A stretch of DNA of 64,000 nt. Origin: a virus. Positions 32,212-63,617 of this stretch are shown in pieces (the stretch's first letter is position 1; every line of letters starts with the position of its first letter). The position numbers and the translations under genes are program-made. Location: IMG/VR virus record IMGVR_UViG_3300045988_132833; one strand, 5' to 3'. Under the pieces are notes generated by a model. The model ran no database searches and was not told the origin of the DNA. It saw only the letters and a list, made by a program, of their open reading frames with translations.

Positions 32212-33096
32212 TCAGTTTGATTCGTGAGTATTCTTTCTAATCCACTTTTCCGCATTGGCTCTAATTAATGAGTCTTTCAACATTTTAGCGTGGACTAGTT
32301 CTTTCTCTTTTCTATACTCCCTTATTCGTTTCCGCTCTGCAGATCTCTCCTCATAATAATGTTTTGAATACTCTGGAGTTCCCTCATAATACGTTTTATT
32401 GATAGAATCGTAATAACACTTTATGAGGTCAGAAGTACTAAGCCTCTTATACTTTTTACTTCGTATGATAGGAGAATACCAGTAATCAAGAGGCAAATTA
32501 GGAGGATAATTTGTACACAGTTTTCCTATTGCCTCAGTAATACACTCCTGTACCTTCTTTCCAAGGTCATTCGAGAGTTGTTCACTAGATGCAATTATAT
32601 AATCTATATCTTTGCCCAATTTGGCTTTTAAATATAGTACAATTTCTGGATGTTCCAAAAAGAGTTTTTCTTTGTTTACAATGTAGTAATCTTCTGACCT
32701 ATCCAGCTCCATAACATACTTTCTGCGCTTATTATTCTTGATAGGTTTATACCTTCTAATAATATAATTGGAATCCAAATAGTAGTTGTTACTATGCCAA
32801 CATACATCAGACATATTATGAGGATCAATCCTTGACTTAAACTCTTCACGGAACCCGAAGTCCTTCTTCTTTCTAAATCTCTCGCATACCTTAGAATATA
32901 CGTTGTCAAACTTCTTCCCAACAGAATCCTCAAGGAATCTATCTATCCAAGTATAGGCATCCTTATTCCAATGGTCATGATACCCATATACTCCCTCTCT
33001 ACGAGTTTTTTCTCTCATTGATTCGTGCTTAGGAAGAACAACGTCTTCATAATTTGCATAATTACTAGGTAATCCTTGATAAAATTCGTTAACCAT
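32212..33096 (-). CDS. Hypothetical protein
   Basis: 294 aa ORF. Confidence 0.45.
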   Translation of the reverse strand: MVNEFYQGLPSNYANYEDVVLPKHESMREKTRREGVYGYHDHWNKDAYTWIDRFLEDSVGKKFDNVYSKVCERFRKKKDFGFREEFKSRIDPHNMSDVCWHSNNYYLDSNYIIRRYKPIKNNKRRKYVMELDRSEDYYIVNKEKLFLEHPEIVLYLKAKLGKDIDYIIASSEQLSNDLGKKVQECITEAIGKLCTNYPPNLPLDYWYSPIIRSKKYKRLSTSDLIKCYYDSINKTYYEGTPEYSKHYYEERSAERKRIREYRKEKELVHAKMLKDSLIRANAEKWIRKNTHESN

Positions 33097-33120: not shown

Positions 33121-33166
33121 AGCTCTGGCAGGATTCGAACCTGCCAAAAATACCATATAGAGCTTC
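33121..33166 (-). ncRNA. tRNA-like minihelix (acceptor stem plus T-arm only)
   Basis: AGCTCT-[13 nt]-GGCAGG-TTCGAAT-CCTGCC-AGAGCT: a canonical T-loop in a 6-bp stem, enclosed by a 6-bp acceptor-like stem; no D or anticodon arms. Confidence 0.45.
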
Positions 33167-33172
33167 TTTTTC

Positions 33173-33670
33173 TTAATGTAAGAAATCATAAACAGTTGGG
33201 TCTACTACAATTGTGCCATTAACTACACAGTAGTCATGGTCCTTGGTAAAATTATACATTCTAGTATCTCCAATGGACTTAAAGAATTTTGGAATAAATT
33301 CTAAACCCTTTATGGGTTCTCTCCTTATTTCACAAGTTGCTTTTAAGTTACCTTTTGAGATAATGTAATCAAATACCTTCTTATAAGTTCTAGCATAATA
33401 GACACAATGAGTTTTAGTCTCTTTGTTTAATGATAACTTATCAAAACCCTTATATTCAGATTTTGTAGAAAAAGTTAATGTACGAGAAGTTATCTCATTT
33501 GAGAAATCAATAACTTCCTTCAAATTATTCGGATTGATATGTCCATATTCTATTTTCATATCTATACAAGAATAGATATTTCCAGAATACTGAGATTTAC
33601 CCATCCCATAGCAATACCATGCGATAAACATACATGGAATGCTAATAAGCAATACTAACATCTTTTTCAT
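33173..33670 (-). CDS. Secreted/membrane-anchored protein
   Basis: N-terminal hydrophobic signal MKKMLVLLISIPCMFIAWYCYG; 165 aa. Confidence 0.45.
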   Translation of the reverse strand: MKKMLVLLISIPCMFIAWYCYGMGKSQYSGNIYSCIDMKIEYGHINPNNLKEVIDFSNEITSRTLTFSTKSEYKGFDKLSLNKETKTHCVYYARTYKKVFDYIISKGNLKATCEIRREPIKGLEFIPKFFKSIGDTRMYNFTKDHDYCVVNGTIVVDPTVYDFLH

Positions 33671-35713
33671 GCCTTATTTTCTCTTTCTTTTCTTATTATT
33701 TCAGAATATTTATTGTATACATTCCGCATACTATCTACCTTTTCGAGTGGGATATTATACTAATATCTCATTTTGTCAATATTATTTCCCAAATTCTTTC
33801 TAGTCACTCCTAATGTAACTGGAAGTCCTCTAGGAGAAAGTGCTGAATAGGATGCACCTTCATCTGGATCCCAAGCTGCTTCGTCAGTTAATACTACATT
33901 AAATCCATTCTTATTTCTAGACTAGGACATACTCATACCTCCATTAGAGTATTCAACTCTCTGTCCAGGATTAAGGAATTTTATAGGATTACTAAAATCT
34001 GCATATTTAGCTTCCCTGCCATGTGACCTATTATACACTTGGTAAACCCAAGGAGTTAATCCCTTCTAATCAGAGGCTATTGCCAGAGCAGCCAACTCTT
34101 GAATTTGATTATTGAAGTTATCTGACATATCTTTTTCGGTACGAGTTGTACTCTTTGAATCCAAACCAATTTTATTTCTCCACCCTTTATGAAGATCGTG
34201 AACATAAAAGTTAGTTGGTTCAAAGTTATAACCTGTAGTGACAAGCCCAGCTAAGCCCAAAGTACCTAATGCTCTATTCCTTCGAATTTTACTTGCCTCA
34301 TCCGAAATGAATGGCTTCATTGCTTCTTGCCTAACCTTTAGAAGGGCTAATTTATTTTCATCCCCTCCAAATTCTCTAGTGCCACTCTTGTAAACCTTAG
34401 TAGCTTTATCAGAGTTTTCCTACATCCATTTGAGTTGAGCCTTAGAAGCTGCACTCCTCATGGCTTTTGCATCCCTGATAGACTGCTTCTTCCCTTCTAA
34501 GTTGATTTCTCTCATCTTCTATGTAGGTCTCCAACTACCTGTCTACTGCAATATTTTCTACTTTGCAAGCTTGTTTAACTTCTTTTCAGCTGCAGCTTCA
34601 CCCGTAAAGATCCTCCCTAATCTATTTGAAGCTAACTTAGCCTTATTTACTAACTTACCAAACTAGAGAATTGCTCCTCTCTGTGCTTTATTAATTTGTT
34701 TCATTAGTATCCGAATTGCATCTTTCTCTAGTATATAGAGAATAAACTGTTAGGATTATATTGCTATGCCCAATTTGAAACAGTCTTATTGAAAGCATCC
34801 TAGGTTTGCTATCCCCACTTACCATCAGCATTTATTCCAAGTTTCTCTTGAAGTTGCTTGACAGCTTCCGGACTATTGTAACCAGCTTTAGCAGCACGAT
34901 AATCGAACACACTGTCATAGCCGCTATTATGAGCTTCCATAGTGTCATCAGCCGTACCTATAATTTGTCCAGTTTGTTTATTATATATATAACCATTGCT
35001 GCCTTGTAGGTACTGATCGGGAGTCAACCAATTTGTTCCATCGTAATAATTAGTATTTCCATACCTATCTATTCCGAATCCTTGCTGTTGATTTTCATAC
35101 TAACCAGTTTCCTGATTCCACTCCTGCCAACCATTGTTTGGGTTATACATATATTGCTATGGAGTTTCCTCTGCAGCACTAGGCTATTTAGAATTTCTTG
35201 GAATAACTAGATAAGCTCCAGTACCAAGACCACCTACGAGTCCAGTAGTTTTAAGAGTTCTTTTAATACCCTTATTCCTAACTTGTCTTAGGGCATCATT
35301 CGTAACCTGTCTCTTAGTATTATTGAAAGCTTCCTTAGCTTCCATACTTTTCTATGATGCAGTTATTGCACTTCTTTCAGCTTCATCTGTTTTTCGCGCA
35401 GCATCATTTACTCTCTTTACATTTCTTTTACTATTAGGCTACTTCCAATTTTTAGTACTGTTTAATAATTTACTTTCTGCTTGCTAAGCTTCTTTATATC
35501 TTTGAGCTGCAAGATTATGACTCATTTCAGCTCCTCTCTAACTATTTCTAGATGCAATTAATTCTGGAGAAGCTTGCCTAGCTCTAACGACAGCTCTTTC
35601 ACCTCCTCCAATTCGTCTCATCAGGTTTCCGAAGTAATCTGGTATCATCTAACCATGACCTTTTAACCAATTTACTCCCTCACCTAAGTATTGTGCTTTC
35701 TTTTTAATACTCA
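33668..35713 (-). CDS. Late/structural-region gene(s) densely interrupted by in-frame TAG codons (TAG likely read as sense)
   Basis: By-eye translation from the ATG at 35711-35713 gives MSIKKKAQYLGEGVNWLKGHG[TAG]MIPDYFGNLMRRIGGGERAVVRAR[Q]ASPELIASRNS[TAG]RGAEMSHNLAAQRYKEA[TAG]QAESKLLN... The first ~0.25 kb contains three TAGs and no TAA/TGA. Every ORF-track fragment in the block ends in TAG (34066, 34809, 36238). The terminal TGA overlaps the next gene start. Exact gene boundaries are uncertain. Confidence 0.5.
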
Positions 35714-35729
35714 TATTTAATTATTATTA

Positions 35730-36991
35730 GATAAATTTACCATATAACTGCTATGTGCATAAGGGTATAGTGCCATAGTAGGATCTGAAGCCATAAGCCC
35801 CTGAAATGCAGCTTTTCCTACATTTACAAATCTGCCGCCAATTCCTTCTGCTCCTCCTAGTCTCTTAGGGGCTAATGCCCTTCTTACAGAATTAAGTGCA
35901 CTTCCAGCCTAATAAAGGTTAGCAGCACCTGGTGTATGAGACATAATAGGTTTCCAACTGTTCTTCAGCGTAGTACCTACTCCATCTCTTACCATTCCAG
36001 AGACTCCAGTCTTAAGTCTAGAGACTCCACCCTTCATATCTTTAGTTCCAAGGATAGCCATAGCAAAGTTGGCATCATCGTTAATATTTCTTCTCTACTA
36101 TTCGTCTAGTCCAGTCCAGGCAAAGTTCTAATCAGCAAATCCTTTATTTCTAGGATCATCTGGCAATATGCCTTCTTCTCCTGGAGTTAAATAACTTCTG
36201 ACAGAGTTAACATCTTTACCTAGATCTAGATATTGTCCTAGATTACCAGCTTCTCTTTCAACCTTCTATGGTAGCAAGAGCTGTAAGGCAGTTCCAATAG
36301 TTCCTCCAAGAACAGCATTTCCAGTTCTAGAGATATCTCCAAGAGTATCATTGAATCGTACCAAAGCACCTGTGTTTCGTTTTGGTCCCAACACACTCTG
36401 AGGAACATTATCGTACATTTCACCTCTTCTGGCATATCCCTTTTTCCAAATATCAGGAATTGATTTAAAGGAATCAATGAAGTTTTTTGCTGCACTATCC
36501 CAGTTGCCTTCCCAAGCACCTTTCTTGAAAGGATTTAGATCACTCCAACTAAATTCATCAGGATCCTAAGCAGAAGTCTATGATTTCTGTCGTGCTATAT
36601 AAGCCTTCATAGCTTTATTCTTTGTATCTTGATTTAGATAGGTATCTTTATTATTGAAAGGGTTTCTCTGTGTATAGCCAGTTGCTGTTTTTCTAGCTCC
36701 TGCTGCCTTTGCATTCTCCTCTATTCTAGAAGCTGCTTCATCCCATGTAGCAGTTTTCCCTTGCTTAGAAGATTTGACATCATTAAAACGCCAACGTCCA
36801 TTCTAGAATATGTTTCCATTTCTAGTATTCATTGAGGTTCTATTGGCAACTTCCCTTCCATATTTTCCTGCTAAATATCTCCAAGCAGCACCAGAAATGG
36901 GCTACCCTTTCTAGGCAATCTTGTTGCCGTTTACATCTCGGTAATATCCATCTTTACCAAGCCACAATTTACTCATATTAAAATCAGCCAT
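35730..36991 (-). CDS. Late/structural-region gene interrupted by in-frame TAG codons
   Basis: ATG at 36989-36991 preceded by an A11 leader; translation MADFNMSKLWLGKDGYYRDVNGNKIA[TAG]KG[TAG]PISGAAWRY... continues to about 35730 with only TAG stops in frame. Confidence 0.45.
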
Positions 36992-37027
36992 TTTCTTCTT
37001 TTTTTTTTTGTTTACAGGAACAGGTAG

Positions 37028-37106
37028 TACCTCCTAGTGGATTCGAACCACTGACAGTTTCACTAATATAGACTTTGTTAAACTTCTACCACTGATATAA
37101 GGAGGT
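37028..37106 (-). tRNA. tRNA-like gene with a candidate CUA anticodon (putative amber suppressor), non-canonical fold
   Basis: Perfect 7-bp acceptor ACCTCCT/AGGAGGT, T-arm AGTGG-TTCGAAT-CCACT, D-loop AGTGGTAGA; anticodon arm ACAAA-GTCTATA-TTAGT (U33 then CTA) stacked on a further 5-bp stem AGTTT/AAACT; the D-stem is poorly paired; 79 nt. Confidence 0.4.
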
Positions 37107-37286
37107 AACCTAGTTAGTTATACTCCAACTAAAAATGAGTTTAGGTTATTTTCACTGGTTTTATTATAACATTCCATTGTCCCAGCACCTATCGTACGTT
37201 CTTTCTCTTTCTAACCCAAATGATTAATTTTAAGGTAATTTACGATATTTAAACGAGTCAGTGGGAGATGTTTGTTACCTAAAGTT

Positions 37287-38300
37287 TTACTTAATAGTAA
37301 CTATTGCTACACGACCACTAGTAGTGTCAGTAACACCAGTTCCAATACAATTCTCTACGATTACACCATTTCCAGTTAAGAATTTGGAAACAGTTTTTGC
37401 ACGTTTCTCCGACAACTTCTGATTGTAATTAGAGGAACCTTCTGGAGATGCAGAACCAATAATACTTACCTTAGAACCAGATGGAATCTTAGATAATTCA
37501 GACATCGCGGTTCCAGTAAGTTTTGCAGAATTTTGTGCAAAGAAAATCACTGTGTTACCAACTGTATTAGTAACAACTTCGGTCTTAATGACTTCCTTTA
37601 CAATTTCTGTAGGTTTCTTTGCTAAATCCTTCTTAAGAGAATTAATTTCATTGTTCATTGATGCAATGTCATACGCCTTAAAGCTTCTTGTACCATTAGA
37701 AGTCTTAAAGTGATATACCCATCCAATTAAGACACCAAGCTGAGCATAATTCTTATTGAACTCTACGTGACCTGTCTTGTTCAGATTCCAGTATACTGCA
37801 GGATTAACTATAATCGAGTGAGCCTTCTCCTTACCTAGATTGAATGACAATACCGCTCCAGTTTTAGAGGTAATATAGTTACAGTGTCCTGTCCAACTAT
37901 GCAGCCAGCCAATACCAGTCTCAGTGCTTACTTCAAACCTCCTAGGGGTTCCATTATATCCGCACAGCAGGTTAGAGAAGTTAACAACTCCGTTCAATCC
38001 AGTATTAATAGATTTTACTACAGTAGAAGCACTACCGTAGTGATTATCGCCAAAGGAAGCCAGTCCTTCAACATTAAACCCAAATACAGGAGTAAAGTCC
38101 TTCTGCAACTTAATACCAGCAACTCCATTTACTGGAAATACTGAGTTAAAGTCCAGAGGAGTAGTTGCTCCACCTATAACACTAATAGAAGTGTTATCAA
38201 GGATTTTAGATTCTTCATACGCTGTTTGCGAGTAGGTAAAACTACACAGAGTAAACAGCAAACTCATGATGAAAATAAATTTCTTCATAAAATTTTTCAT
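37287..38300 (-). CDS. OmpA-family protein with signal peptide
   Basis: N-terminal signal MKKFIFIMSLLFTLCSFTYSQ; C-terminal OmpA-like domain SASPEGSSNYNQKLSEKRAKTVSKFL. Confidence 0.55.
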   Translation of the reverse strand: MKNFMKKFIFIMSLLFTLCSFTYSQTAYEESKILDNTSISVIGGATTPLDFNSVFPVNGVAGIKLQKDFTPVFGFNVEGLASFGDNHYGSASTVVKSINTGLNGVVNFSNLLCGYNGTPRRFEVSTETGIGWLHSWTGHCNYITSKTGAVLSFNLGKEKAHSIIVNPAVYWNLNKTGHVEFNKNYAQLGVLIGWVYHFKTSNGTRSFKAYDIASMNNEINSLKKDLAKKPTEIVKEVIKTEVVTNTVGNTVIFFAQNSAKLTGTAMSELSKIPSGSKVSIIGSASPEGSSNYNQKLSEKRAKTVSKFLTGNGVIVENCIGTGVTDTTSGRVAIVTIK

Positions 38301-38423: not shown

Positions 38424-38470
38424 AAGGTTGAGAGGATTCGAACCTCTATAGAGCCTTAACTCCAACCTAA
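38424..38470 (-). ncRNA. tRNA-like minihelix (acceptor stem plus T-arm only)
   Basis: AGGTTG-[15 nt]-AGAGG-TTCGAAT-CCTCT-CAACCT; no 5' partner for a full-length acceptor stem is visible upstream. Confidence 0.45.
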
Positions 38471-38650
38471 ACAGAGCACCTCCACTACTTCTATTTATCT
38501 TCTAATAGTAGCAAGAGAATATTCTACATTGACCTCAATAGAAATCGGACTAGACCAGCTAGTTATTAAATTCAAAAGTCATTTTATGAATAATATTTTA
38601 TTTTTGAATTTTTGCTGCAAGTGCTCTTATTATAAGATTATGGCAAAACC

Positions 38651-46103: not shown

Positions 46104-46861
46104 TTCTTCTTTATTACTTCTTTATAAACATTCATGTAAACTGGTTTTCTTCGTCTTTCGAAGATATCATCGCTTTCCCAAAATTCAAAATCAGAAGTGG
46201 TAAGATCCCCATCTTCATTTGGTATTTGGCTGTTATTGCCTTTATTCTTCAACTTATCATAAACGTTATTTAACATTTTGATATACTGAAGTTTCTCTCT
46301 AATGTCTCTCTTTAACATAGTCTTGCTAACTTGGTTCCTAGCTATTTGATGAATATCTCTAGGATTTTCGTTAAAACAGCCTAGCACAAGATTAAACAAG
46401 TCAGACATAGAGGTGAACCTAAAGCATGGGTCCTTTTTTAACTTATAAGCATCATATAAGATAACATTATAAGGGTACTCATACATATATCTCAGCCAAG
46501 TTAAAAGATACTTATGAAACGTACCAGGAACGTTAGTGAGTTTTAAGCGAACCTTAAATACATTATAACCATCTCTCCAGTTGGTAACTTCTGTAATGTA
46601 GAAATCAAATGGATAAATACCTTGAGCTTGTCTGAGATGGTTTCTTATCTGTTTCTTTGTAAAGAAACACGAATTTGAATTATGCTTCTCTCTAGAAAAA
46701 TCAGTTCCCTTATAAAGGATAACTTCATATTCTTCACTTACATTTTCCTCGTCAGTGTGTCTAAATACGAATGAGAAGCATGTTTCTACATCCATGTCCT
46801 TCTTAAAGGCACCTTTACATGAATATTCCGTGTGGTAATCTAAAAATTGAAAATCTTTCAT
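46100..46861 (-). CDS. Hypothetical protein
   Basis: 253 aa ORF. Confidence 0.45.
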   Translation of the reverse strand: MKDFQFLDYHTEYSCKGAFKKDMDVETCFSFVFRHTDEENVSEEYEVILYKGTDFSREKHNSNSCFFTKKQIRNHLRQAQGIYPFDFYITEVTNWRDGYNVFKVRLKLTNVPGTFHKYLLTWLRYMYEYPYNVILYDAYKLKKDPCFRFTSMSDLFNLVLGCFNENPRDIHQIARNQVSKTMLKRDIREKLQYIKMLNNVYDKLKNKGNNSQIPNEDGDLTTSDFEFWESDDIFERRRKPVYMNVYKEVIKKK

Positions 46862-49270: not shown

Positions 49271-49470
49271 TTAAAACAGAATACCTTTTAGAAATTAATC
49301 ACAATAATTCTTGATAAAATTGCTGTTAGTATTCTTATTCAAACAAAATGGATTCAAAACAAAAACGGAATGCTACTAGAAATGTTCAAGATTAAAAGTC
49401 TTGTATTATAGTCTAAGTTTGCTGTGTGCATTCCTATAACAATCTTCTAAATATTTTTTTTTTAGACAAT

Positions 49471-49600
49471 TAGAGTTACCCAGAGTACGCCACGTGGAGG
49501 CTTGTCTATGTACTCCTGGAGATGAGGGGAGTCGAACCCCTGTCTTACATATTTGCATCAAAGCATTCTTACAGCATAGGTTTTAAAGACTATCCTTGTC
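49471..49600 (-). pseudogene. Degenerate tRNA-like element plus a duplicated 3'-flank motif
   Basis: T-arm AGGGG-TTCGACT-CCCCT is present but no 5' acceptor partner or anticodon arm folds. The 49471-49520 segment (ATTAGAGTTACCC[AG][AG]AGTA..CCACG.GGAGG) repeats at 51231-51282, where it flanks an intact tRNA-Pro. Confidence 0.35.
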
Positions 49601-49885
49601 TTTTAGGGTTGACAGGATTGATATACTGTTAACTTCCACCACTCTGTTCCTGAAGTGTACAGAGAACTTATAGAATTGTCAATGGCGCACCTTTCTGTTC
49701 CTAAGCAAGTGCTGCTCGGCTTATTAGGCAGCAGCCTGATAAGCAGGAGTCATATTAATAACTCTAGCATTTATTGTTTTGTTGTCTTTCCAACTGTCTT
49801 TGCTGTGCTTCTTATCTCCTATGCAATCAAAACCAAACATCCCCATAGTAAGCAGTTTCAGGTCATGCTTAGGACTTTCTTTCAC

Positions 49886-50407: not shown

Positions 50408-50461
50408 AGTTTTTAATTAATAAATACTAATCTAAAACAGGAATCTATTCTTTCATGGCTG

Positions 50462-50520
50462 CTGCTCTAAACCAGCTGAGCTACCTTTGAGGATTGGATT
50501 CGAACCAATGACTTGCGGCT
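50462..50520 (-). other. Juxtaposed tRNA fragments (a 3' half followed directly by a 5' half)
   Basis: Minus sense: ...ATTGG-TTCGAAT-CCAAT-CCTCAAAG then GGTAGCTCAGCTGGTTTAGAGCAGC (canonical acceptor/D-arm start) with no matching partner halves nearby. Confidence 0.3.
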
Positions 50521-51274
50521 TTTACAAGAATACATTTGCTGTTAGATTCCTTCTTATAATTTATTCTGGTAAATTACCATATTCCCATTTATATTTAAAG
50601 GCAGTTTTAGCCTTGTGCTTGCAGCAATTTGTAATTTTACTCGTTGCTGTTCTATTTTTTGCTAATCCATGCTCTACCAACCAATCCATTGCGTCCTAAA
50701 TGCTCTGGAATGTCTAGATGTAATTCCCAGCAAGATCATACTAAAGAACAACTTTAGAATCTCCCTTCCTTATTTTAATGGAATTTGTTTTTGCTACTTT
50801 ATATACAATATCAGAACAACATCCAACTTTATTACAAACCTGAGCAGAACTATACCCCAATTTAAGGAGATCAACTATTTCACGATAATCATAGAGTATC
50901 TTTCCATCTCCACCACAGGTAGCATTGTATCCTCCAGAGCCAAAGGTTTGCAACTCCTTGATCCAAAAGATCTCTCTTTGCGAGAGGACATCCTAAGATA
51001 TTCCATCTTCTAGTATGTCTAGTCGAAAGTTTTCTATCCCATACTTATTCATTGCATCATAAAGAGGTCGCTTATTACATCTTTTCTTCTAGCTATCTAC
51101 ACAGTGTTCCTTGAATCTTTCCTCAGGATTTTTAGTAGTTTTTCCTATATACCTTTTGTTATTTAATAAGTTTGTAATGCAATAAATATATCCCATATTA
51201 CTTTTTTTTTTCTTTATTATAAGCTATTAGAGTTACCCGAAGTATACCACGCGGAGGTTGCTTACACATACTTC

Positions 51275-51362: not shown

Positions 51363-51474
51363 ATAAACAGAAGACTTGTTTGTACTTACTTGATCCCTAA
51401 TCGAGTGTATGAAATACTTGCTGTTAGTCTTCTTACTTATTAACAATAAAAACAAAAAAGAGTATCCAGTCGAG

Positions 51475-51517
51475 GTGCATGAGGATTCGAACCTCTACTT
51501 CCTACTGAGGAATGCAC
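51475..51517 (-). ncRNA. tRNA-like minihelix (acceptor stem plus T-arm only)
   Basis: GTGCAT-[16 nt]-GAGG-TTCGAAT-CCTC-ATGCAC. Confidence 0.4.
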
Positions 51518-51592
51518 CTTAAACAGAGAACTTAAAAAGAATCATAAAATAACCATTAGCAATATTGCTGAAGTTCTCTTATGATAGCTAGT

Positions 51593-53649: not shown

Positions 53650-55392
53650 TCACGAACCAGTACGAACTGTATGCTTTTTACGTTTACGCTTAGTTATACT
53701 AAGCTTCACGATTCTTACTCTGTTAAGTAACTCCTGATCCATTGCTGTTAAGAATAACTCTTCAGCATTCTTAGGAGCTTTAAGTTCAGGTCTATTTCCT
53801 CCTAAAATAAATGACACAGCACTTGGGTCATAGCCAGACATATAGAAGAAATTAGGAGCATCTGCAAAGTCTTCAAACTTTACCTTGTTATCATCGCCAT
53901 ACCATCCATTAGGAATATCCCAAAGGATAATCTTAAAGGAATTGACGTATTCCTCACTAAATCTAGCCTCACGAAGTCTTCTAATTGCAAGTTGGAAATT
54001 TGTGGATTTGTTAGTACCACATCTATTAAACTCTCCATCACTTACGCAAAGGATTCCACTTGGAAAATCCTTTTCCTCAACTCCTTCTGATTTTAACCTT
54101 ATAAAGAGATCTATTACAGATTGGAAATTAGTACTTCCGTAAGCCTCACAATGATCGTTGATGTACTTATCAACTGGAGTTGCTCCAGCCCATTTATGGA
54201 GTTTGCAACCATCAGAGAACTCTGCAAATGTGCCGGCGAAGCATCCCTCTAAGAACTCAGAGAAATACAATGCCATAGATTTAGCAATGCAGAATGAAGA
54301 CACCTTGCATCCTCTGGCGGTTGCTTCCATTGAGCCTGAGGTATCTCGTACTACAAGTAGTGACGACTTAGCATCTACATTCTCTTTGCCTGTCTTTACA
54401 AGTTGTGCAAATTGAGCATTGATTGTCTTCTCCTTGTAATCCTCTATGTGTCGATAGTTTCCATCGAAAGGAGCAAATAGCTCGAACACATATCCTGTGA
54501 ACTTAGCTACAGGCTTAGAGGAAATCCAATCAATATACTTCTTAGTAAGATTGTGGTTTTCCAAGAAGTTAGAACCAACCAAGAGAGCTAAAGCTCTACC
54601 TGCAATGTGGTCAAAGTTAAGTGAGTTATACAGCTGCTGAGAAATAAGTTGTTGCCATTCATGAGCAACACCTTCAGACTTAATCTTTCGATAAGCCTTA
54701 TAAGCTGATTCTTTTTCCAACTTAGGAGAGAATTTTCTAGCTAACCATCTACCTATAAGAGTGTCTGCTTGAGACTCAAGCGTTGTACAGTTCTTATTAG
54801 TTCTAATAGTTGGCAGATACTTACGCACCAGGTGAGTTGTATCAGGATTGTTAAGTCCTGCGGACAAAGTCAGATATAGGAAATTCCAATCTAACTTTCT
54901 CTCTTCCCAGCCATGATATTGTAGGTCTAAAGAGAGCATTTGAATAACATCCTTCCATGAGCCTGCTGCAATGAAAAGAGGAAGATTTACTTTAAATGTT
55001 GCAGGTTGATTAATTGCCAACCACAGCATTCTCATAATACCTTCATTCTTCAAGCCCTGTCCGCGCTGAACTTCTAGTTCTTCACTCTTGTCTTTAGTAA
55101 CAATTTTAGACTTACGTGTAATGAGTCTGAAATAGAGCGCAAGTTTTACACAGAGAGTAGGATTTGAATCCCATAGAGTTTGCATATCCTTTGCTACTTC
55201 CTCATAAGAGCGAGGCTCTTTGAAATATGAAGCAGCAGCAAAGTTATCAACAAAATCGTTTCCAGTTGTGGAATACTTCTTTGCTCCATTGCCCGACTCA
55301 GTTTCAGAAGACACTTTCAGTGCTTGCTTTACGAACTGATTCTCGGCAGGTTTAATGTCGAGAAGTGAATTTACCTTCTTTTGAAATTCCAT
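53650..55392 (-). CDS. TROVE/vWA two-domain protein (Ro60/Rsr-like candidate)
   Basis: About 580 aa. The C-terminal vWA has a MIDAS VRDTSGSM motif after a ~360 aa helical N-terminal region, the same architecture as Ro60. Start trimmed to MEFQKK, which is preceded by an A12 leader. Confidence 0.35.
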   Translation of the reverse strand: MEFQKKVNSLLDIKPAENQFVKQALKVSSETESGNGAKKYSTTGNDFVDNFAAASYFKEPRSYEEVAKDMQTLWDSNPTLCVKLALYFRLITRKSKIVTKDKSEELEVQRGQGLKNEGIMRMLWLAINQPATFKVNLPLFIAAGSWKDVIQMLSLDLQYHGWEERKLDWNFLYLTLSAGLNNPDTTHLVRKYLPTIRTNKNCTTLESQADTLIGRWLARKFSPKLEKESAYKAYRKIKSEGVAHEWQQLISQQLYNSLNFDHIAGRALALLVGSNFLENHNLTKKYIDWISSKPVAKFTGYVFELFAPFDGNYRHIEDYKEKTINAQFAQLVKTGKENVDAKSSLLVVRDTSGSMEATARGCKVSSFCIAKSMALYFSEFLEGCFAGTFAEFSDGCKLHKWAGATPVDKYINDHCEAYGSTNFQSVIDLFIRLKSEGVEEKDFPSGILCVSDGEFNRCGTNKSTNFQLAIRRLREARFSEEYVNSFKIILWDIPNGWYGDDNKVKFEDFADAPNFFYMSGYDPSAVSFILGGNRPELKAPKNAEELFLTAMDQELLNRVRIVKLSITKRKRKKHTVRTGS

Positions 55393-55414
55393 GCTTTTTT
55401 TTTTTACATGATTA

Positions 55415-55762
55415 TTAAAAATTTTTATAACTCCCATCCGAGAATATTACCTTACTAAGAGTTTGCCTCATAGGTCGAATATAATTCTTCGGAGGATAAT
55501 AAGTAATTATTTTGGATGTGCCTGATTCTATATAGGTTTTCACCACAGCCTCCTTGTAACGATTAACATCATACTTAGAGGTATATCCATATTCTACTGT
55601 AAATACTAAACATACAATATCTTTCCATGTGTTATTAAGTATTTCTGTCTTTATATATGGAGTATTATTAGAATCATAGCATCCTTTTGCTCTCAATACC
55701 TTTTGAGAGACTGCACTAGTACTTATAAGTACAAGTAGCAAAGCACATAAAATTTTCTTCAT
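55415..55762 (-). CDS. Secreted protein (start trimmed to MKKILCALLLVLISTSAVSQ)
   Basis: The signal peptide begins at an internal Met; the longer ORF-track N-terminus overlaps tRNA-Leu. Confidence 0.45.
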   Translation of the reverse strand: MKKILCALLLVLISTSAVSQKVLRAKGCYDSNNTPYIKTEILNNTWKDIVCLVFTVEYGYTSKYDVNRYKEAVVKTYIESGTSKIITYYPPKNYIRPMRQTLSKVIFSDGSYKNF

Positions 55763-55867: not shown

Positions 55868-56086
55868 TTACATAGAATAAGCTTCTTCCAATTCCTTAGA
55901 CCAAGCTTGATAAACACTAATAAATGGTTTATGCATCATATTATGCTTTTTGGCATAATCGAGCAAATACTTTAGTTCTTGTAAATCCATAGTTAATATA
56001 ATTAATGTTTGTAGCTCTAGCGAGAGTCGAACTCGCACGCCCATTCCTGGACAACAGATTTTCCTACCACACTTGCTTTTATACAA
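55868..56086 (-). CDS. Small protein, paralog of 59028..59300
   Basis: C-terminal YAKKHNMMHKPFISVYQAW versus YAKDNNLMDKPFVEVYNLY in the paralog. Confidence 0.4.
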   Translation of the reverse strand: MYKSKCGRKICCPGMGVRVRLSLELQTLIILTMDLQELKYLLDYAKKHNMMHKPFISVYQAWSKELEEAYSM

Positions 56087-56100
56087 GCTAACTTAAATAA
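56020..56100 (-). tRNA. tRNA-like element (T-arm GCGAG-TTCGACT-CTCGC); remainder not foldable by eye
   Basis: A perfect T-arm and 3' acceptor TAGAGCT, but no clean 5' partner or anticodon arm was identified. Confidence 0.25.
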
Positions 56101-56135
56101 AGGGGCTCGAACCCTTAATCCTCAAGAAATATTTA
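56094..56135 (-). ncRNA. tRNA-like minihelix (acceptor stem plus T-arm only)
   Basis: TTAAATA-[11 nt]-AAGGG-TTCGAGC-CCCTT-TATTTAA; the AT-only stem could be chance, but the architecture matches the other three minihelices. Confidence 0.3.
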
Positions 56136-56673
56136 ACGACGACTTTAGAGGCGCTTCCGTCAATCTGCTGCCGTATACCAATTCCGCCATATTTAAGTTA
56201 TTGTGGTCTGGACTATTTTACTACCATATTAGAAATCTTGCAAGTAAGTATATAAGGTTTAATCTAACCTCTAATAGCAGTCTGCTCCCCTTATTTCTGC
56301 GAATCTTGCCAGTTTAATTTTAAATATACAATTCCTAACTTAGGTATCTCCTATATAGTCTCTACGCCATTTATAAACAAAATAAGAGTCTACAATATGC
56401 CTATTGTCTTCGCCACTCCACCGATACATTAAGAGGTATGTCTGTTGCCCCTCACTCTTATTTTGTTTAATTTAGTTCGCCGTCACCAAAACTTACGTCA
56501 CCATAAGTGAGGCTTCCGTGCAAGTTAATTAGATTTCTGAATACTGCTTCTATAATCATTACTCTGCTTCTTACACAGACGCTAACCTTTTTACGATTAG
56601 TAATAACTTGTTTAATTAGGGAGATTCTACTTCTGAACTTTCGTATCAGAGCACTCAAATTTTAAGACTACTT

Positions 56674-57192
56674 CTATAGAAGTTCCTTTCTTCTGCAAAA
56701 ATTATCAGTCTGACTATGACAATTAGGACATAACATTCTCAGATTTTCTATTCTATTATCCGATCTGTCTCCATTTATATGATGAAGTTGTATAGTAATT
56801 GGTTTTCCTCTCCATTCAGTTATACCACATTCTTCACATTTATTTTCTTTTAGTCCTAAATTAATAACTTTTGTTCTAACCTTTGCAGATTTCAAGGTTT
56901 TGTCTTCTGATAGTTTGGAAGCATATTTATCTCTATATACTGGATTTTTATTGTTTGTATTCCATCTTTGTCCAGTAAAATGAGAATAATCTACTTCAAA
57001 CTCATCCATTTTCTTTCTGACTGTTTTTGGATTTGAACCTTCTGGTTTTAATCCTAATTTTCTGCATAATTCTGCAAAAGAATAACAATCCTTAACTTTT
57101 TCTTCCAATAATTCTTTGGTATAATTTACTTTTCTCATATTATATAATTTGTTATTGTATTGTTTACAAATATACAAAAAGTTATACTTCAA
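56674..57192 (-). CDS. HNH homing endonuclease
   Basis: CEECG...HHINGDRSDNRIENLRMLCPNCHSQTDN; ends at a TAG followed 4 codons later by an in-frame TAA. Confidence 0.7.
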   Translation of the reverse strand: MKYNFLYICKQYNNKLYNMRKVNYTKELLEEKVKDCYSFAELCRKLGLKPEGSNPKTVRKKMDEFEVDYSHFTGQRWNTNNKNPVYRDKYASKLSEDKTLKSAKVRTKVINLGLKENKCEECGITEWRGKPITIQLHHINGDRSDNRIENLRMLCPNCHSQTDNFCRRKELL

Positions 57193-57360
57193 AATTATTG
57201 GTAGACAAAATTAAAAAATGATATTTTTGTCTACCTTAAAGTCTGTCGGGTCTACCATTCCCCCATAGAGCCATCCTTTCTTAAAGAAGTTTGTATATCA
57301 TAATTATTATTTTCAAAATAGTCCTGTACGATTTGAGCATTGTTAAGAGGCTTGACAGGA

Positions 57361-57450
57361 AATTAGTTAGTGTATAGAGAATCGAACTCTATTTGTGACC
57401 ATCACACCACAGCAGCAGGAGTATTCTCCAATTGAGAATATCCTAGAATT
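57361..57450 (-). tRNA. tRNA-like element (T-arm TAGAG-TTCGATT-CTCTA plus an upstream 7-bp hairpin TATTCTC-AATTG-GAGAATA)
   Basis: Canonical T-loop and a D-loop-like AATTGG, but acceptor pairing was not found by eye. Confidence 0.25.
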
Positions 57451-58609: not shown

Positions 58610-58698
58610 TGGTGTTCCCTATGGGACTAGAACCCATGACCCTCGGATTAAAAGTCCGATGCTCTCTAGCCTTGCGGAACCAACTGAGCTAAGGGAAC
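58610..58698 (-). tRNA. tRNA-Lys (anticodon TTT) with an enlarged D-loop; CCA encoded
   Basis: Acceptor GTTCCCT/AGGGAAC followed by ACCA, anticodon arm TCGGA-CTTTTAA-TCCGA, T-arm ATGGG-TTCTAGT-CCCAT; D-arm GCTC...GAGC encloses about 21 nt. Confidence 0.6.
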
Positions 58699-61870: not shown

Positions 61871-62231
61871 TATTTCTAAAAATGTTAAGTCCTAACCACT
61901 AGACGATGGCGATAGAAGCAGAGTACAAACTAAAGATATTTTTAGCAAAATAAGTTTAAAATTCAAATCGTAAAGTTTGCTGTAAGTACTCTTATTATAA
62001 TTTTAAAAATTACAAGAAATGTCAGAGAACAGAACACTTTTGTACTTCCAAAAAGTTGCGGAACAAAATTGCTGTCAGTGTTCTTATATCTATAACCAAA
62101 AAATTCATAAACTAATCAGATGACGTTTTGGTTGTTTATTTACTTCGGACAACCTCCGAACACTCAATTACCATAAAATTGCGTTTGGAATAAGTAATTT
62201 TGCTGTGCGCCATCTTGTTGGTGAAAAGAAG

Positions 62232-63244: not shown

Positions 63245-63335
63245 TCCCTCTCTAGGTATCGAACCTAGTAACTATCTCTTCTATAGCCTACAGATAAGAA
63301 AGTTAACAGCTATACTTGTGGACAGGGACTATTTA
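63245..63335 (-). tRNA. tRNA-like element (T-arm CTAGG-TTCGATA-CCTAG), probably a long type-II tRNA; anticodon undetermined
   Basis: Acceptor candidate TCCCTGT/AGAGGGA with one mismatch; the interior includes a CTAT-AGAAGAG-ATAG hairpin. Confidence 0.3.
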
Positions 63336-63617
63336 CTTTCTTTTAAGGAGATGTTATCCTATTTTAGAGGGAATTGTGAGAGCAATACGAATCGAACGTA
63401 CTTTGATTACTTGATGTATTAACTTCATCCACTATCATTTATTTGCTAAAACATTACATAGCTAATAATGGAAAGTCTTCACCTGCAATATTATTTTGCG
63501 TTACCTTTTTATCTTATCACCTGTCCTATGTATTTGCAACTACATAGGTAGCTCCCAAGTTCACCTTTTCATTTAATTGAGAGGTGTAACTCAATTCTTT
63601 TAGGATTGAAACTTTCC

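Follow-up and report, generated by a model that had tools for sequence, protein, structure and literature searches.

Four tRNA-like hairpins in a 64,000-nt stretch of viral DNA (IMG/VR record IMGVR_UViG_3300045988_132833; hereafter, the window) fall, judging from their sequences and those of their homologues, into three kinds of tRNA-derived structure. The first kind, found at locus 1 and designated here type A, appears from sequence comparison to be a strongly covarying mimic of the tRNA top half, i.e. acceptor stem plus T-arm, about 44 nt in length, which is widespread in phages and is covered by no Rfam model. Loci 2 and 3 form the second kind, and at locus 4 the T-arm probably belongs to a larger tRNA-like branch within an intron. 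The best explanation, to which we would assign a probability of about 0.55, combines this classification with the action of the top halves as punctuation signals for RNase P and RNase Z; while the classification, the structures and the selection acting on them can be read from the alignments, cleavage and function are what we infer. A preliminary description of the same DNA had treated the four hairpins as a single family of minihelices lacking both the D-arm and the anticodon arm; its observations were confirmed in part, and its interpretation was partly supported.

The window is AT-rich (36% G+C) and represents a group of gut phages with genomes of roughly 130-180 kb, with protein identity of 67-100% to its relatives in IMG/VR and ENA. 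On the plus strand the four hairpins read GGATTCGAACC, which assigns their T-arms to the minus strand, where the tRNAs also lie, in agreement with the preliminary description. Each of the four carries a canonical T-arm with a stem of 4-6 bp and a TTCGAAT or TTCGAGC loop; the 3′ strand of a second stem continues the T-stem directly, and its 5′ strand lies 13-16 nt upstream of the T-arm, yielding 11-12 stacked pairs per locus (Table 1). In anatomical terms, the T-arms and flanking inverted repeats are real at all four loci. A descriptor scan for a T-arm with a coaxial outer stem matched the window six times, always on the minus strand, as opposed to 0.3 cases per sequence (maximum 3) in first-order Markov randomisations of the window. 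Among the six were also one chance overlap within a tRNA-Thr and one element, at 57368-57409, that the preliminary description did not contain.

None of loci 1-3 was called as a tRNA by ARAGORN at its default threshold. In a scan of 33 kb none of the four loci reached the Rfam tRNA model (RF00005, gathering score 29 bits), and loci 1-3 had no match at E<=10; an identical copy of locus 1 in L039 scored 19.8 bits with that model, below its gathering score. The notion of one family at four loci had to be abandoned in view of the scores obtained with R1, a covariance model of the locus-1 type, which recognised locus 1 (38 bits, E 2e-6), gave 15 bits at locus 2, and scored on the bare T-arm only at loci 3 and 4. 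We also considered whether loci 1-3 could be 3′ exons of intron-split tRNAs, which was ruled out, as ARAGORN with introns allowed finds only a tRNA-Leu to be split; at locus 1, it is the nearby 5′ strand that covaries with the 3′ strand, and relatives differ in their upstream genes.

Type A, a tRNA top-half element of phages

As defined by R1, type A consists of an outer stem of 6-7 bp, a linker with an invariant GG, a T-stem of 5-7 bp and a UUCGAWU loop, forming a coaxial stack of 12-13 bp. Locus 1 is composed of AGCUCU, the linker AUAUGGUAUUUUU, the T-arm GGCAGG-UUCGAAU-CCUGCC and AGAGCU, followed by A-CAA. It is placed 24 nt upstream of the ATG of ORF 32212-33096, with both the spacing and the gene kept in close relatives, and is co-oriented with its two flanking genes (ORF 33173-33670 and ORF 32212-33096, both on the minus strand). 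Its homologue in L011 displays two compensatory T-stem pairs and the paired loss of one G-C pair, and that in L027 a change from C-G to A-U.

Metagenomes were scanned with a pattern consisting only of ATATGGTATT, a gap and GTTCGAWTCC, in which stems were not demanded. Of the 89 loci recovered, about 60 had perfect outer and T stems, with many different stem sequences. A covariance model built from nine scan loci yielded 107 matches in 0.6 Mb, many of them copies that the pattern had not picked; in these unselected copies the linker is relaxed to WWUGGWAWW, with the GG retained. In the model-fitted alignment 94.9% of the cells are paired, double changes occur at 13/13 pairs, and the covariation score is 0.627, compared with 0.137 for shuffles and <=0.138 for slid controls. 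Since this alignment had been fitted to the model, the test was repeated on a plain MAFFT alignment of 30 sequences, from which RNAalifold recovered 6+6 = 12 pairs, every one with compensatory changes (12/12), and an invariant GG. The seventh outer pair is often unpaired, and the tail after the stack is loosely C-N-A. The geometry is thus that of a 12-bp stack with a discriminator-like base and a degenerate CCA, and the GG of the linker can act as a stand-in for G18-G19 of the D-loop. Taken at the level of sequence, these patterns argue that type A is a real structure maintained by selection.

Type-A elements share the orientation of the flanking ORFs (32/35 downstream, 35/37 upstream). They lie in the gaps between small phage genes, in many cases with one element to a gene, and an ATG follows 18-69 nt downstream; arrays of 2-5 copies per contig, spaced about 300-600 nt apart, are frequent. 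The contigs carrying them encode terminase, exonuclease and DnaD-like proteins and are of phage origin; they were sampled from marine, freshwater, soil and gut environments. Further copies come from Clostridia and Anaeroplasma metagenome-assembled genomes and from contigs assigned to an Alistipes bin. Both GenBank phage records that were checked, crAss-like phage cr131_1 and Mycobacterium phage Archetta, contain the element unannotated; in Archetta (NC_054778) it is located on the reverse strand near 46632-46676. No clear minihelix could be resolved in the matches to an Arthrobacter phage and to Pectobacterium phage CBB, and a BLAST comparison of the marine arrays with cultured phages gave no match. 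Rfam searches with type A at permissive thresholds gave only sub-threshold matches to tRNA, tmRNA and mascRNA, and a full-text literature search, incomplete in its coverage, found no description of such phage elements. On marine contigs L036/L082 and L067, a second small hairpin and a repeated GTTTAAAC motif come after each arrayed minihelix, ahead of the ribosome-binding site; this motif may be a promoter or an operator.

Three trivial origins of type A were rejected. Attachment-site fragments of tRNA genes lack an adjacent complementary 5′ strand and a GG linker, and would not be expected in 3-5 copies within 2.5 kb; intrinsic terminators are ruled out by the A-rich downstream sequence without a U-run; and simple repeats or MITE-like copies are ruled out by the variation of stems between copies of one array.

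Within the window, locus 1 is the sole solid member, and by their R1 scores loci 2, 3 and 4 do not belong to type A. The element at 57368-57409 (UGGUGUG, AUGGUCACAAA, UAGAG-UUCGAUU-CUCUA, UACACUA) is marginal by its R1 score, and its syntenic homologues, located upstream of the Ro60-like gene region, covary: the T-stem of the L120 copy, TTAGG/CCTAA, differs by three compensatory pairs. It is positioned directly upstream of an abiF-motif RNA, which could act as an antitoxin-like decoy.

Loci 2 and 3 and the hairpins preceding them

By sequence and predicted fold, loci 2 and 3 resemble one another and are unlike type A. Locus 2 is made up of an acceptor stem AGGUUG/CAACCU, a mini D-arm GAG-UUAAGG-CUC and a T-arm AGAGG-UUCGAAU-CCUCU, and locus 3 of an acceptor stem AGGUGCA(U)/(A)UGCACCU, a mini D-arm UUCC-UCAGUA-GGAA and a T-arm GAGG-UUCGAAU-CCUC. 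Because the linker folds as a small D-arm-like hairpin of 3-4 bp with a 6-nt loop, only the anticodon arm and the variable region of a tRNA are missing. Of the architecture initially ascribed to all four hairpins, loci 1-3 bear out the tRNA top half and the lack of an anticodon arm, with a mini D-arm present at loci 2 and 3; locus 4 is better described as part of a larger tRNA-like branch.

Homologues of locus 3 were found in L001-L004 and L121. All four single-base substitutions in their stems (4/4) keep the pairing, being A-to-G opposite U or C-to-U opposite G, and in L003 the D-arm hairpin has been remodelled with its pairing intact, while loops, linkers and trailers change freely. If transitions are twice as frequent as each transversion, roughly one in four random stem substitutions would be tolerated, and the probability of 4/4 would be about 0.004, a rough estimate from a small sample. 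At locus 2, with homologues in L015-L018, one wobble-preserving stem change stands against four loop changes. The stem pairing anticipated in the preliminary description is thus kept in relatives, to an extent that is strong at locus 1, modest at locus 3 (via wobble) and weaker at locus 2 (one substitution).

Each of the two loci directly follows a hairpin of a recurrent type, which we call the CAGCAA leader, in the very position that a tRNA normally takes behind it. Its layout is AUAAGA, 4-6 variable bases, 1-3 bases, CAGCAA, an insert of either 30-60 or 88-132 nt, the complementary bases and UCU-G. About 48 instances, with many different stem sequences, were found in the window and its relatives ahead of many real tRNAs and of tmRNA; as these were picked for perfect complementarity, they provide no independent test of covariation. 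The leader stem ends 4-6 nt before the minihelix at loci 2 and 3, compared with 5-9 nt before position +1 of real tRNAs. The leaders with long inserts are YrlA-like, and those with short inserts may be either further Y-like RNAs or processing signals. Directly behind one CAGCAA hairpin, at about 61905-61925 on the minus strand, there is a segment resembling the 5′ half of tRNA-Glu (GCCATCGTCTAGTGGTTAGGAC), followed by non-tRNA sequence; relatives have an intact tRNA-Glu(UUC) in the matching slot, and the segment represents a truncated gene or else one more split gene.

Locus 4, the Ro60-like protein and other tRNA-related features

When introns were allowed, ARAGORN at its default threshold reported one extra gene, a type II tRNA with a 1176-nt insert in the anticodon loop. 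It was labelled Phe(GAA), but with the boundary moved by one base the loop becomes CUUAAAA, that of Leu(UAA), and the exons joined in this way match the intronless tRNA-Leu(UAA) of L121 exactly. The T-arm at 56020-56036 is part of exon 2. The intron boundaries are CUU/UAAGG...GUAGG/AAAA, with the exon ending in U and the intron in G, and two motifs, GTAGAGACTATA and ATAGTCC, are conserved in the 560-nt ORF-less intron of L119 and are able to pair as in P7. Among L001-L004, L009, L119 and L121, the intron is absent from L002 and L121 and has lengths of 524, 560, 597, 716 or 748 nt in the rest; the HNH ORF and the tRNA-like branch are exclusive to the version in the window. Another intron, of 750 nt, may be present in a tRNA-Ser(UGA) of L004.

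We call the intron "group I-like", because the Rfam Intron_gpI model matches neither it nor its 560-nt ORF-less homologue at E<=10. The assignment is suggested by the insertion site (U34/A35), the U and G boundaries, the R/S-like core motifs and the presence/absence polymorphism, all of which are shared with the tRNA-Leu(UAA) group I intron of cyanobacteria and plastids, as is an optional homing-endonuclease ORF. Unlike the latter, the phage intron is far longer, finds no Rfam group I match and has a variable P9-side branch that here is tRNA-like.

It is in this branch that the T-arm of locus 4 resides. The 3′ strand of the proposed outer stem, TATTTAA, has two identical 5′ partners, of which the distal one, 80 nt upstream, forms a longer stem and is used in the minimum-free-energy fold. 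The Rfam tRNA model aligns the entire 105-nt branch at 28.9 bits, just under its gathering score of 29, with a 34-nt insertion replacing the anticodon loop. In L001, the closing stem of the branch is kept with a compensatory change, and the interior is unrelated and has no T-arm. Given the longer and conserved distal stem, the alignment of the whole branch with tRNA and the energy minimum, the 42-nt minihelix is not the likely fold at locus 4; the branch is probably a variable peripheral domain near the 3′ end of the intron.

The preliminary description had also pointed to a Ro60-like ORF nearby and to Y-RNA-like modules at the four loci. The first of these holds: although the AlphaFold2 model of the protein is of moderate confidence (pLDDT 62), its best Foldseek matches in PDB are the TROVE domain, human and Xenopus Ro60 and Deinococcus Rsr (E 5e-8 to 2.5e-4), each covering about 530-600 alignment columns; phmmer against PDB sequences found nothing. 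The second does not, since in the 33-kb scan the Rfam YrlA model matched none of the four loci, which have the normal order of arms without an enclosing stem, unlike YrlA, in which a permuted domain is enclosed in a stem with GNCGAA(N)G. On present sequence evidence we do not regard the four loci as Y RNAs. A match below the gathering score is found only at 50434-50542, where a permuted tRNA-like domain (T-arm, hairpin, D-arm) occupies a 90-110-nt insert inside a CAGCAA stem. The Rfam alignment places CAGCAA on the GNCGAA motif of YrlA, with two positions different. This 5′ motif is thought to contact Rsr, and RNase P cleaves the YrlA of M. smegmatis, which also gains CCA (PMC4201824). Relatives have up to four YrlA-like elements, as in L120. 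Together, the YrlA-like RNA and the protein suggest a phage-encoded Ro60/Y RNA system, such as the YrlA and other bacterial Y RNAs that accompany Ro60 (Rsr) as tRNA mimics encoded near a Ro60 homologue, also in phages. Type A differs from YrlA, where the T-arm and D-arm are permuted inside the Ro-binding stem, and the resemblance in the window is confined to 50434-50542.

On the minus strand, between 31.9 and 62.3 kb, the window harbours about 22 tRNAs including an amber suppressor, a tmRNA and several other RNA elements. Next to the suppressor, at about 34300-37290, lies a 3-kb stretch without a long ORF in the standard code, which together with the suppressor suggests TAG recoding in part of the genome. 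The tRNA at 58610-58698 (minus) scores 64 bits with the Rfam tRNA model, and in the ARAGORN drawing its variable arm is long and its anticodon has four bases (AGAG). Two orphan T-arms are seen on the same strand at 63252-63268 and 63384-63402; the first is followed by AGAGGGA, with a perfect complement, UCCCUCU, 104 nt upstream, and may form another oversized tRNA-like RNA. A type-A-like minihelix in L118 (2128-2173) has outer-stem bases resembling those at this T-arm. Sub-threshold matches (24-26 bits) to the hepatitis delta virus (HDV)-like ribozyme of F. prausnitzii occur on the minus strand at 51196-51274 and 49453-49516, directly 3′ of tRNA-Pro and tmRNA, respectively. They would fit the "theta" ribozymes, for which trimming of the 3′ ends of tRNAs has been reported in recoded gut phages.

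Table 1. Positions and properties of tRNA-related elements and associated features in the window
Feature	Coordinates	Strand	Basis and remarks
Locus 1, type-A top-half minihelix	33121..33164	minus	R1 38 bits, E 2e-6; 12 coaxial pairs, 13-nt linker, fold z-score vs shuffles -2.95
Locus 2, putative tRNA-like RNA without anticodon arm	38424..38470	minus	sequence and fold; 11 coaxial pairs, 15-nt linker, z-score -1.05
Locus 3, putative tRNA-like RNA without anticodon arm	51473..51519	minus	sequence and fold; 12 coaxial pairs, 16-nt linker, z-score -3.17
Locus 4, T-arm	56100-56116	minus	12 coaxial pairs, 13-nt linker, z-score -0.20
tRNA-like side branch (105 nt) holding the locus 4 T-arm	56092..56196	minus	closed by UAACUUAAAUA/UAUUUAAGUUA
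Fifth minihelix, type-A-like	57368..57409	minus	descriptor scan; R1 17.4 bits, E 0.21
abiF-motif RNA	57322-57359	minus	Rfam 50 bits vs gathering score 37; between fifth minihelix and tRNA-Leu(UAA)
CAGCAA leader before locus 2	38473..38628	minus	stem AGAGCAC/GUGCUCU, 132-nt insert, GUUU, then minihelix
CAGCAA leader before locus 3	51525..51582	minus	stem AGAGAACUU/AAGUUCUCU, 31-nt insert, GUUUA, then minihelix
CAGCAA leaders in the window (C of CAGCAA)	62074, 61982, 51570, 51423, 50541, 49424, 49325, 38617, 32093	minus	
CAGCAA leaders in relatives			L005, L006, L009, L010, L117-L121
YrlA-like element	50434..50542	minus	Rfam YrlA 31.4 bits vs gathering score 69, E 2.4e-5 on a 201-nt stretch
Ro60-like protein (helical repeat and vWA domain)	53650..55437	minus	Pfam DUF2828 and DUF7788, fold search
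Split tRNA-Leu(UAA) gene	56011..57272	minus	ARAGORN with introns; exon 1 57272-57239, exon 2 56062-56012
Group I-like intron (1176 nt)	56063..57238	minus	in the anticodon loop (U34/A35) of tRNA-Leu(UAA)
HNH endonuclease ORF within the intron	56674-57192		Pfam HNH and HNH_3
tmRNA	49514-49844		found in window
Amber suppressor tRNA, anticodon CUA	37027-37106	minus	

Proposed processing punctuation and alternative roles

Acceptor/T-arm minihelices are sufficient as minimal substrates for RNase P, RNase Z and the CCA-adding enzyme, and in plant mitochondrial t-elements and the MALAT1 mascRNA tRNA-like structures serve as processing signals at transcript ends. Since the top half with its elbow is the part recognised by these three enzymes, we propose that the elements act as punctuation in mRNA processing, which is our best guess as to their function. 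A 5′ cut by RNase P and a 3′ cut by RNase Z would split polycistronic phage transcripts into units and release a small, stable minihelix RNA. At loci 2 and 3, the cut would in addition set the 3′ end of the upstream CAGCAA leader, possibly itself a Y-like RNA, freeing both the leader and the downstream part.

From its sequence, type A would then be a tRNA-like processing element, which is a known kind, although the family itself has neither an Rfam model nor a literature description that we could find. Plant mitochondrial t-elements are similar in being acceptor/T-arm structures within mRNAs that have no decoding role; the phage elements, however, belong to a bacterial setting, are much shorter and more uniform, with a 12-bp stack and a GG linker, and come one per small gene, and the processing by RNase P or RNase Z that operates on t-elements at transcript ends is for them a proposal. 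In MALAT1/mascRNA and MEN-beta (RF01684), a tRNA-like RNA is likewise found behind another RNA whose 3′ end is set by the RNase P cut, and this logic, in which a small tRNA-like RNA is freed at the same time, is the one proposed here for loci 2 and 3 behind their CAGCAA hairpins; mascRNA differs in being eukaryotic and in keeping a small anticodon arm, and RF01684 scores a type-A element at 19.8 bits, versus a gathering score of 42.5. With the tRNA-like domain of tmRNA, type A has in common the acceptor stem, the T-arm, a D-loop analogue and the absence of an anticodon arm, and one type-A element can be aligned over its full length to the Rfam tmRNA model, albeit at 22.5 bits, far under the gathering score of 47. 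Type A has, however, no mRNA-like part, pseudoknots or G3-U70, and the phage has a separate tmRNA. Synthetic acceptor/T-arm minihelices, which are also substrates of some aminoacyl-tRNA synthetases, agree with type A in architecture and in their 12-bp length, but are laboratory constructs; in the natural elements a linker containing GG is added between the stems.

Several observations weigh against this explanation, taken as punctuation and classification together. The sequence around type A is suboptimal for bacterial RNase P: A or U mostly precedes the stack, and the 3′ tail is C-N-A rather than RCCA. Two copies can stand 64 nt apart with no gene between them, so that simple punctuation of one element per gene is insufficient. 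The homologues of loci 2 and 3 are restricted to a close clade, with stem changes of the wobble type only, and the two loci are possibly recent, undecayed tRNA remnants. The failure of the Rfam group I model to match the intron should be counted here as well.

The clade restriction and the wobble-only covariation would be expected if loci 2 and 3 were young, functionless pseudogenes that arose by internal deletion of tRNA-Ile and tRNA-Leu genes. Real tRNAs indeed occupy the corresponding slots in relatives: tRNA-Ile(GAU) is found in that of locus 3 in L006, L117 and L118, and tRNA-Leu(UAG) in that of locus 2 in L118, while the slot of locus 3 is empty in L120. We nevertheless consider this origin doubtful, as pairing survives each of the four stem substitutions at locus 3 and the only one at locus 2 while loops and linkers change, and the spacing behind the leader hairpin is preserved. 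Moreover, the slot of locus 2 in L119 contains an independent remnant, a 75-nt aberrant tRNA-like RNA in which the 7-bp acceptor and 6-bp T stems are perfect and the middle is scrambled. Retention of the tRNA top half where the remainder has been lost thus appears, at the sequence level, to be a recurring pattern at loci 2 and 3 and in L119.

The minihelices could also work in trans. As decoys or sponges that are abundant early in infection, they would titrate host factors or toxins reading the acceptor end, the T-arm or the elbow, such as nucleotidyltransferase or pyrophosphokinase toxins acting at the 3′ end, or tRNA-modifying and tRNA-processing enzymes. The presence of several copies per array amid small, early-type genes, the precise retention of tRNA geometry down to the elbow GG and the unpaired 3′ tail, and the adjacency of the element at 57368-57409 to an abiF-motif RNA that is a counter-defence candidate in its own right, would be in line with such a role; but we found no link to any defence system, the stems vary so freely that no single tRNA is mimicked, and the elements are embedded in mRNAs without evident promoters of their own, so this role seems unlikely. 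A related proposal, to which we attach equally little weight, is that type A gives rise to new abundant phage small RNAs, excised from early transcripts by the tRNA-processing machinery of the host and CCA-tailed, that either act as trans-acting decoys of tRNA-directed immune toxins or, as competitive inhibitors, retune to the advantage of the phage one of the host factors RNase P, RNase Z, CCA-adding enzyme and EF-Tu; if true, they would constitute a widespread RNA-based device for counter-defence or takeover, reaching beyond punctuation.

It is improbable that the minihelices, alone or with the preceding CAGCAA hairpin, are bound by the Ro60-like protein. The Ro60-like fold found by fold search, the CAGCAA stem that the YrlA-like RNA shares with the hairpins abutting loci 2 and 3, and the alignment of CAGCAA with GNCGAA speak for such binding; the two differences between these motifs and the lack of a YrlA match at any of the four loci speak against it. 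The Ro60-like ORF, encoded on the same strand, is 2.1 kb from locus 3, 0.7 kb from locus 4 and more than 15 kb from loci 1 and 2. Since loci 2 and 3 are directly 3′ of hairpins with a YrlA-like 5′ motif, a looser link to Ro60 is conceivable for them. As little can be said for the elements being primarily recombination cassettes, 44-nt homologies for the shuffling of small genes like the promoter-stem-loop (PeSL) repeats of T4-type phages: arrays do flank small genes, and four near-identical genomes each have another gene upstream of locus 1, with synteny breaking exactly at the 5′ edge of the element, but stems are unlike between copies of one array and offer little homology, and selection on pairing and on tRNA-specific tertiary features points to a role at the RNA level. 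The two roles are compatible, and the synteny break fits a secondary role in gene shuffling.

If type A is what its sequences suggest, many unrelated phages, including marine, gut and crAss-like phages and mycobacteriophages, would share a compact RNA module of about 44 nt, backed by covariation, that borrows the tRNA-processing enzymes of the host and either shapes phage transcripts or makes small RNAs. The principle of tRNA punctuation, known from mitochondria and MALAT1, would thereby be extended to bacterial viruses, and annotators would have a new feature to look for in the gene-dense early regions of phage genomes. In the phage described here, tRNA-related parts cluster: besides its real tRNAs and tmRNA it has an intron-split tRNA, Y-like RNAs, tRNA stubs and a Ro60-like protein. 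As Mycobacterium phage Archetta is among the carriers of type A, a direct test of its processing would be possible in M. smegmatis.

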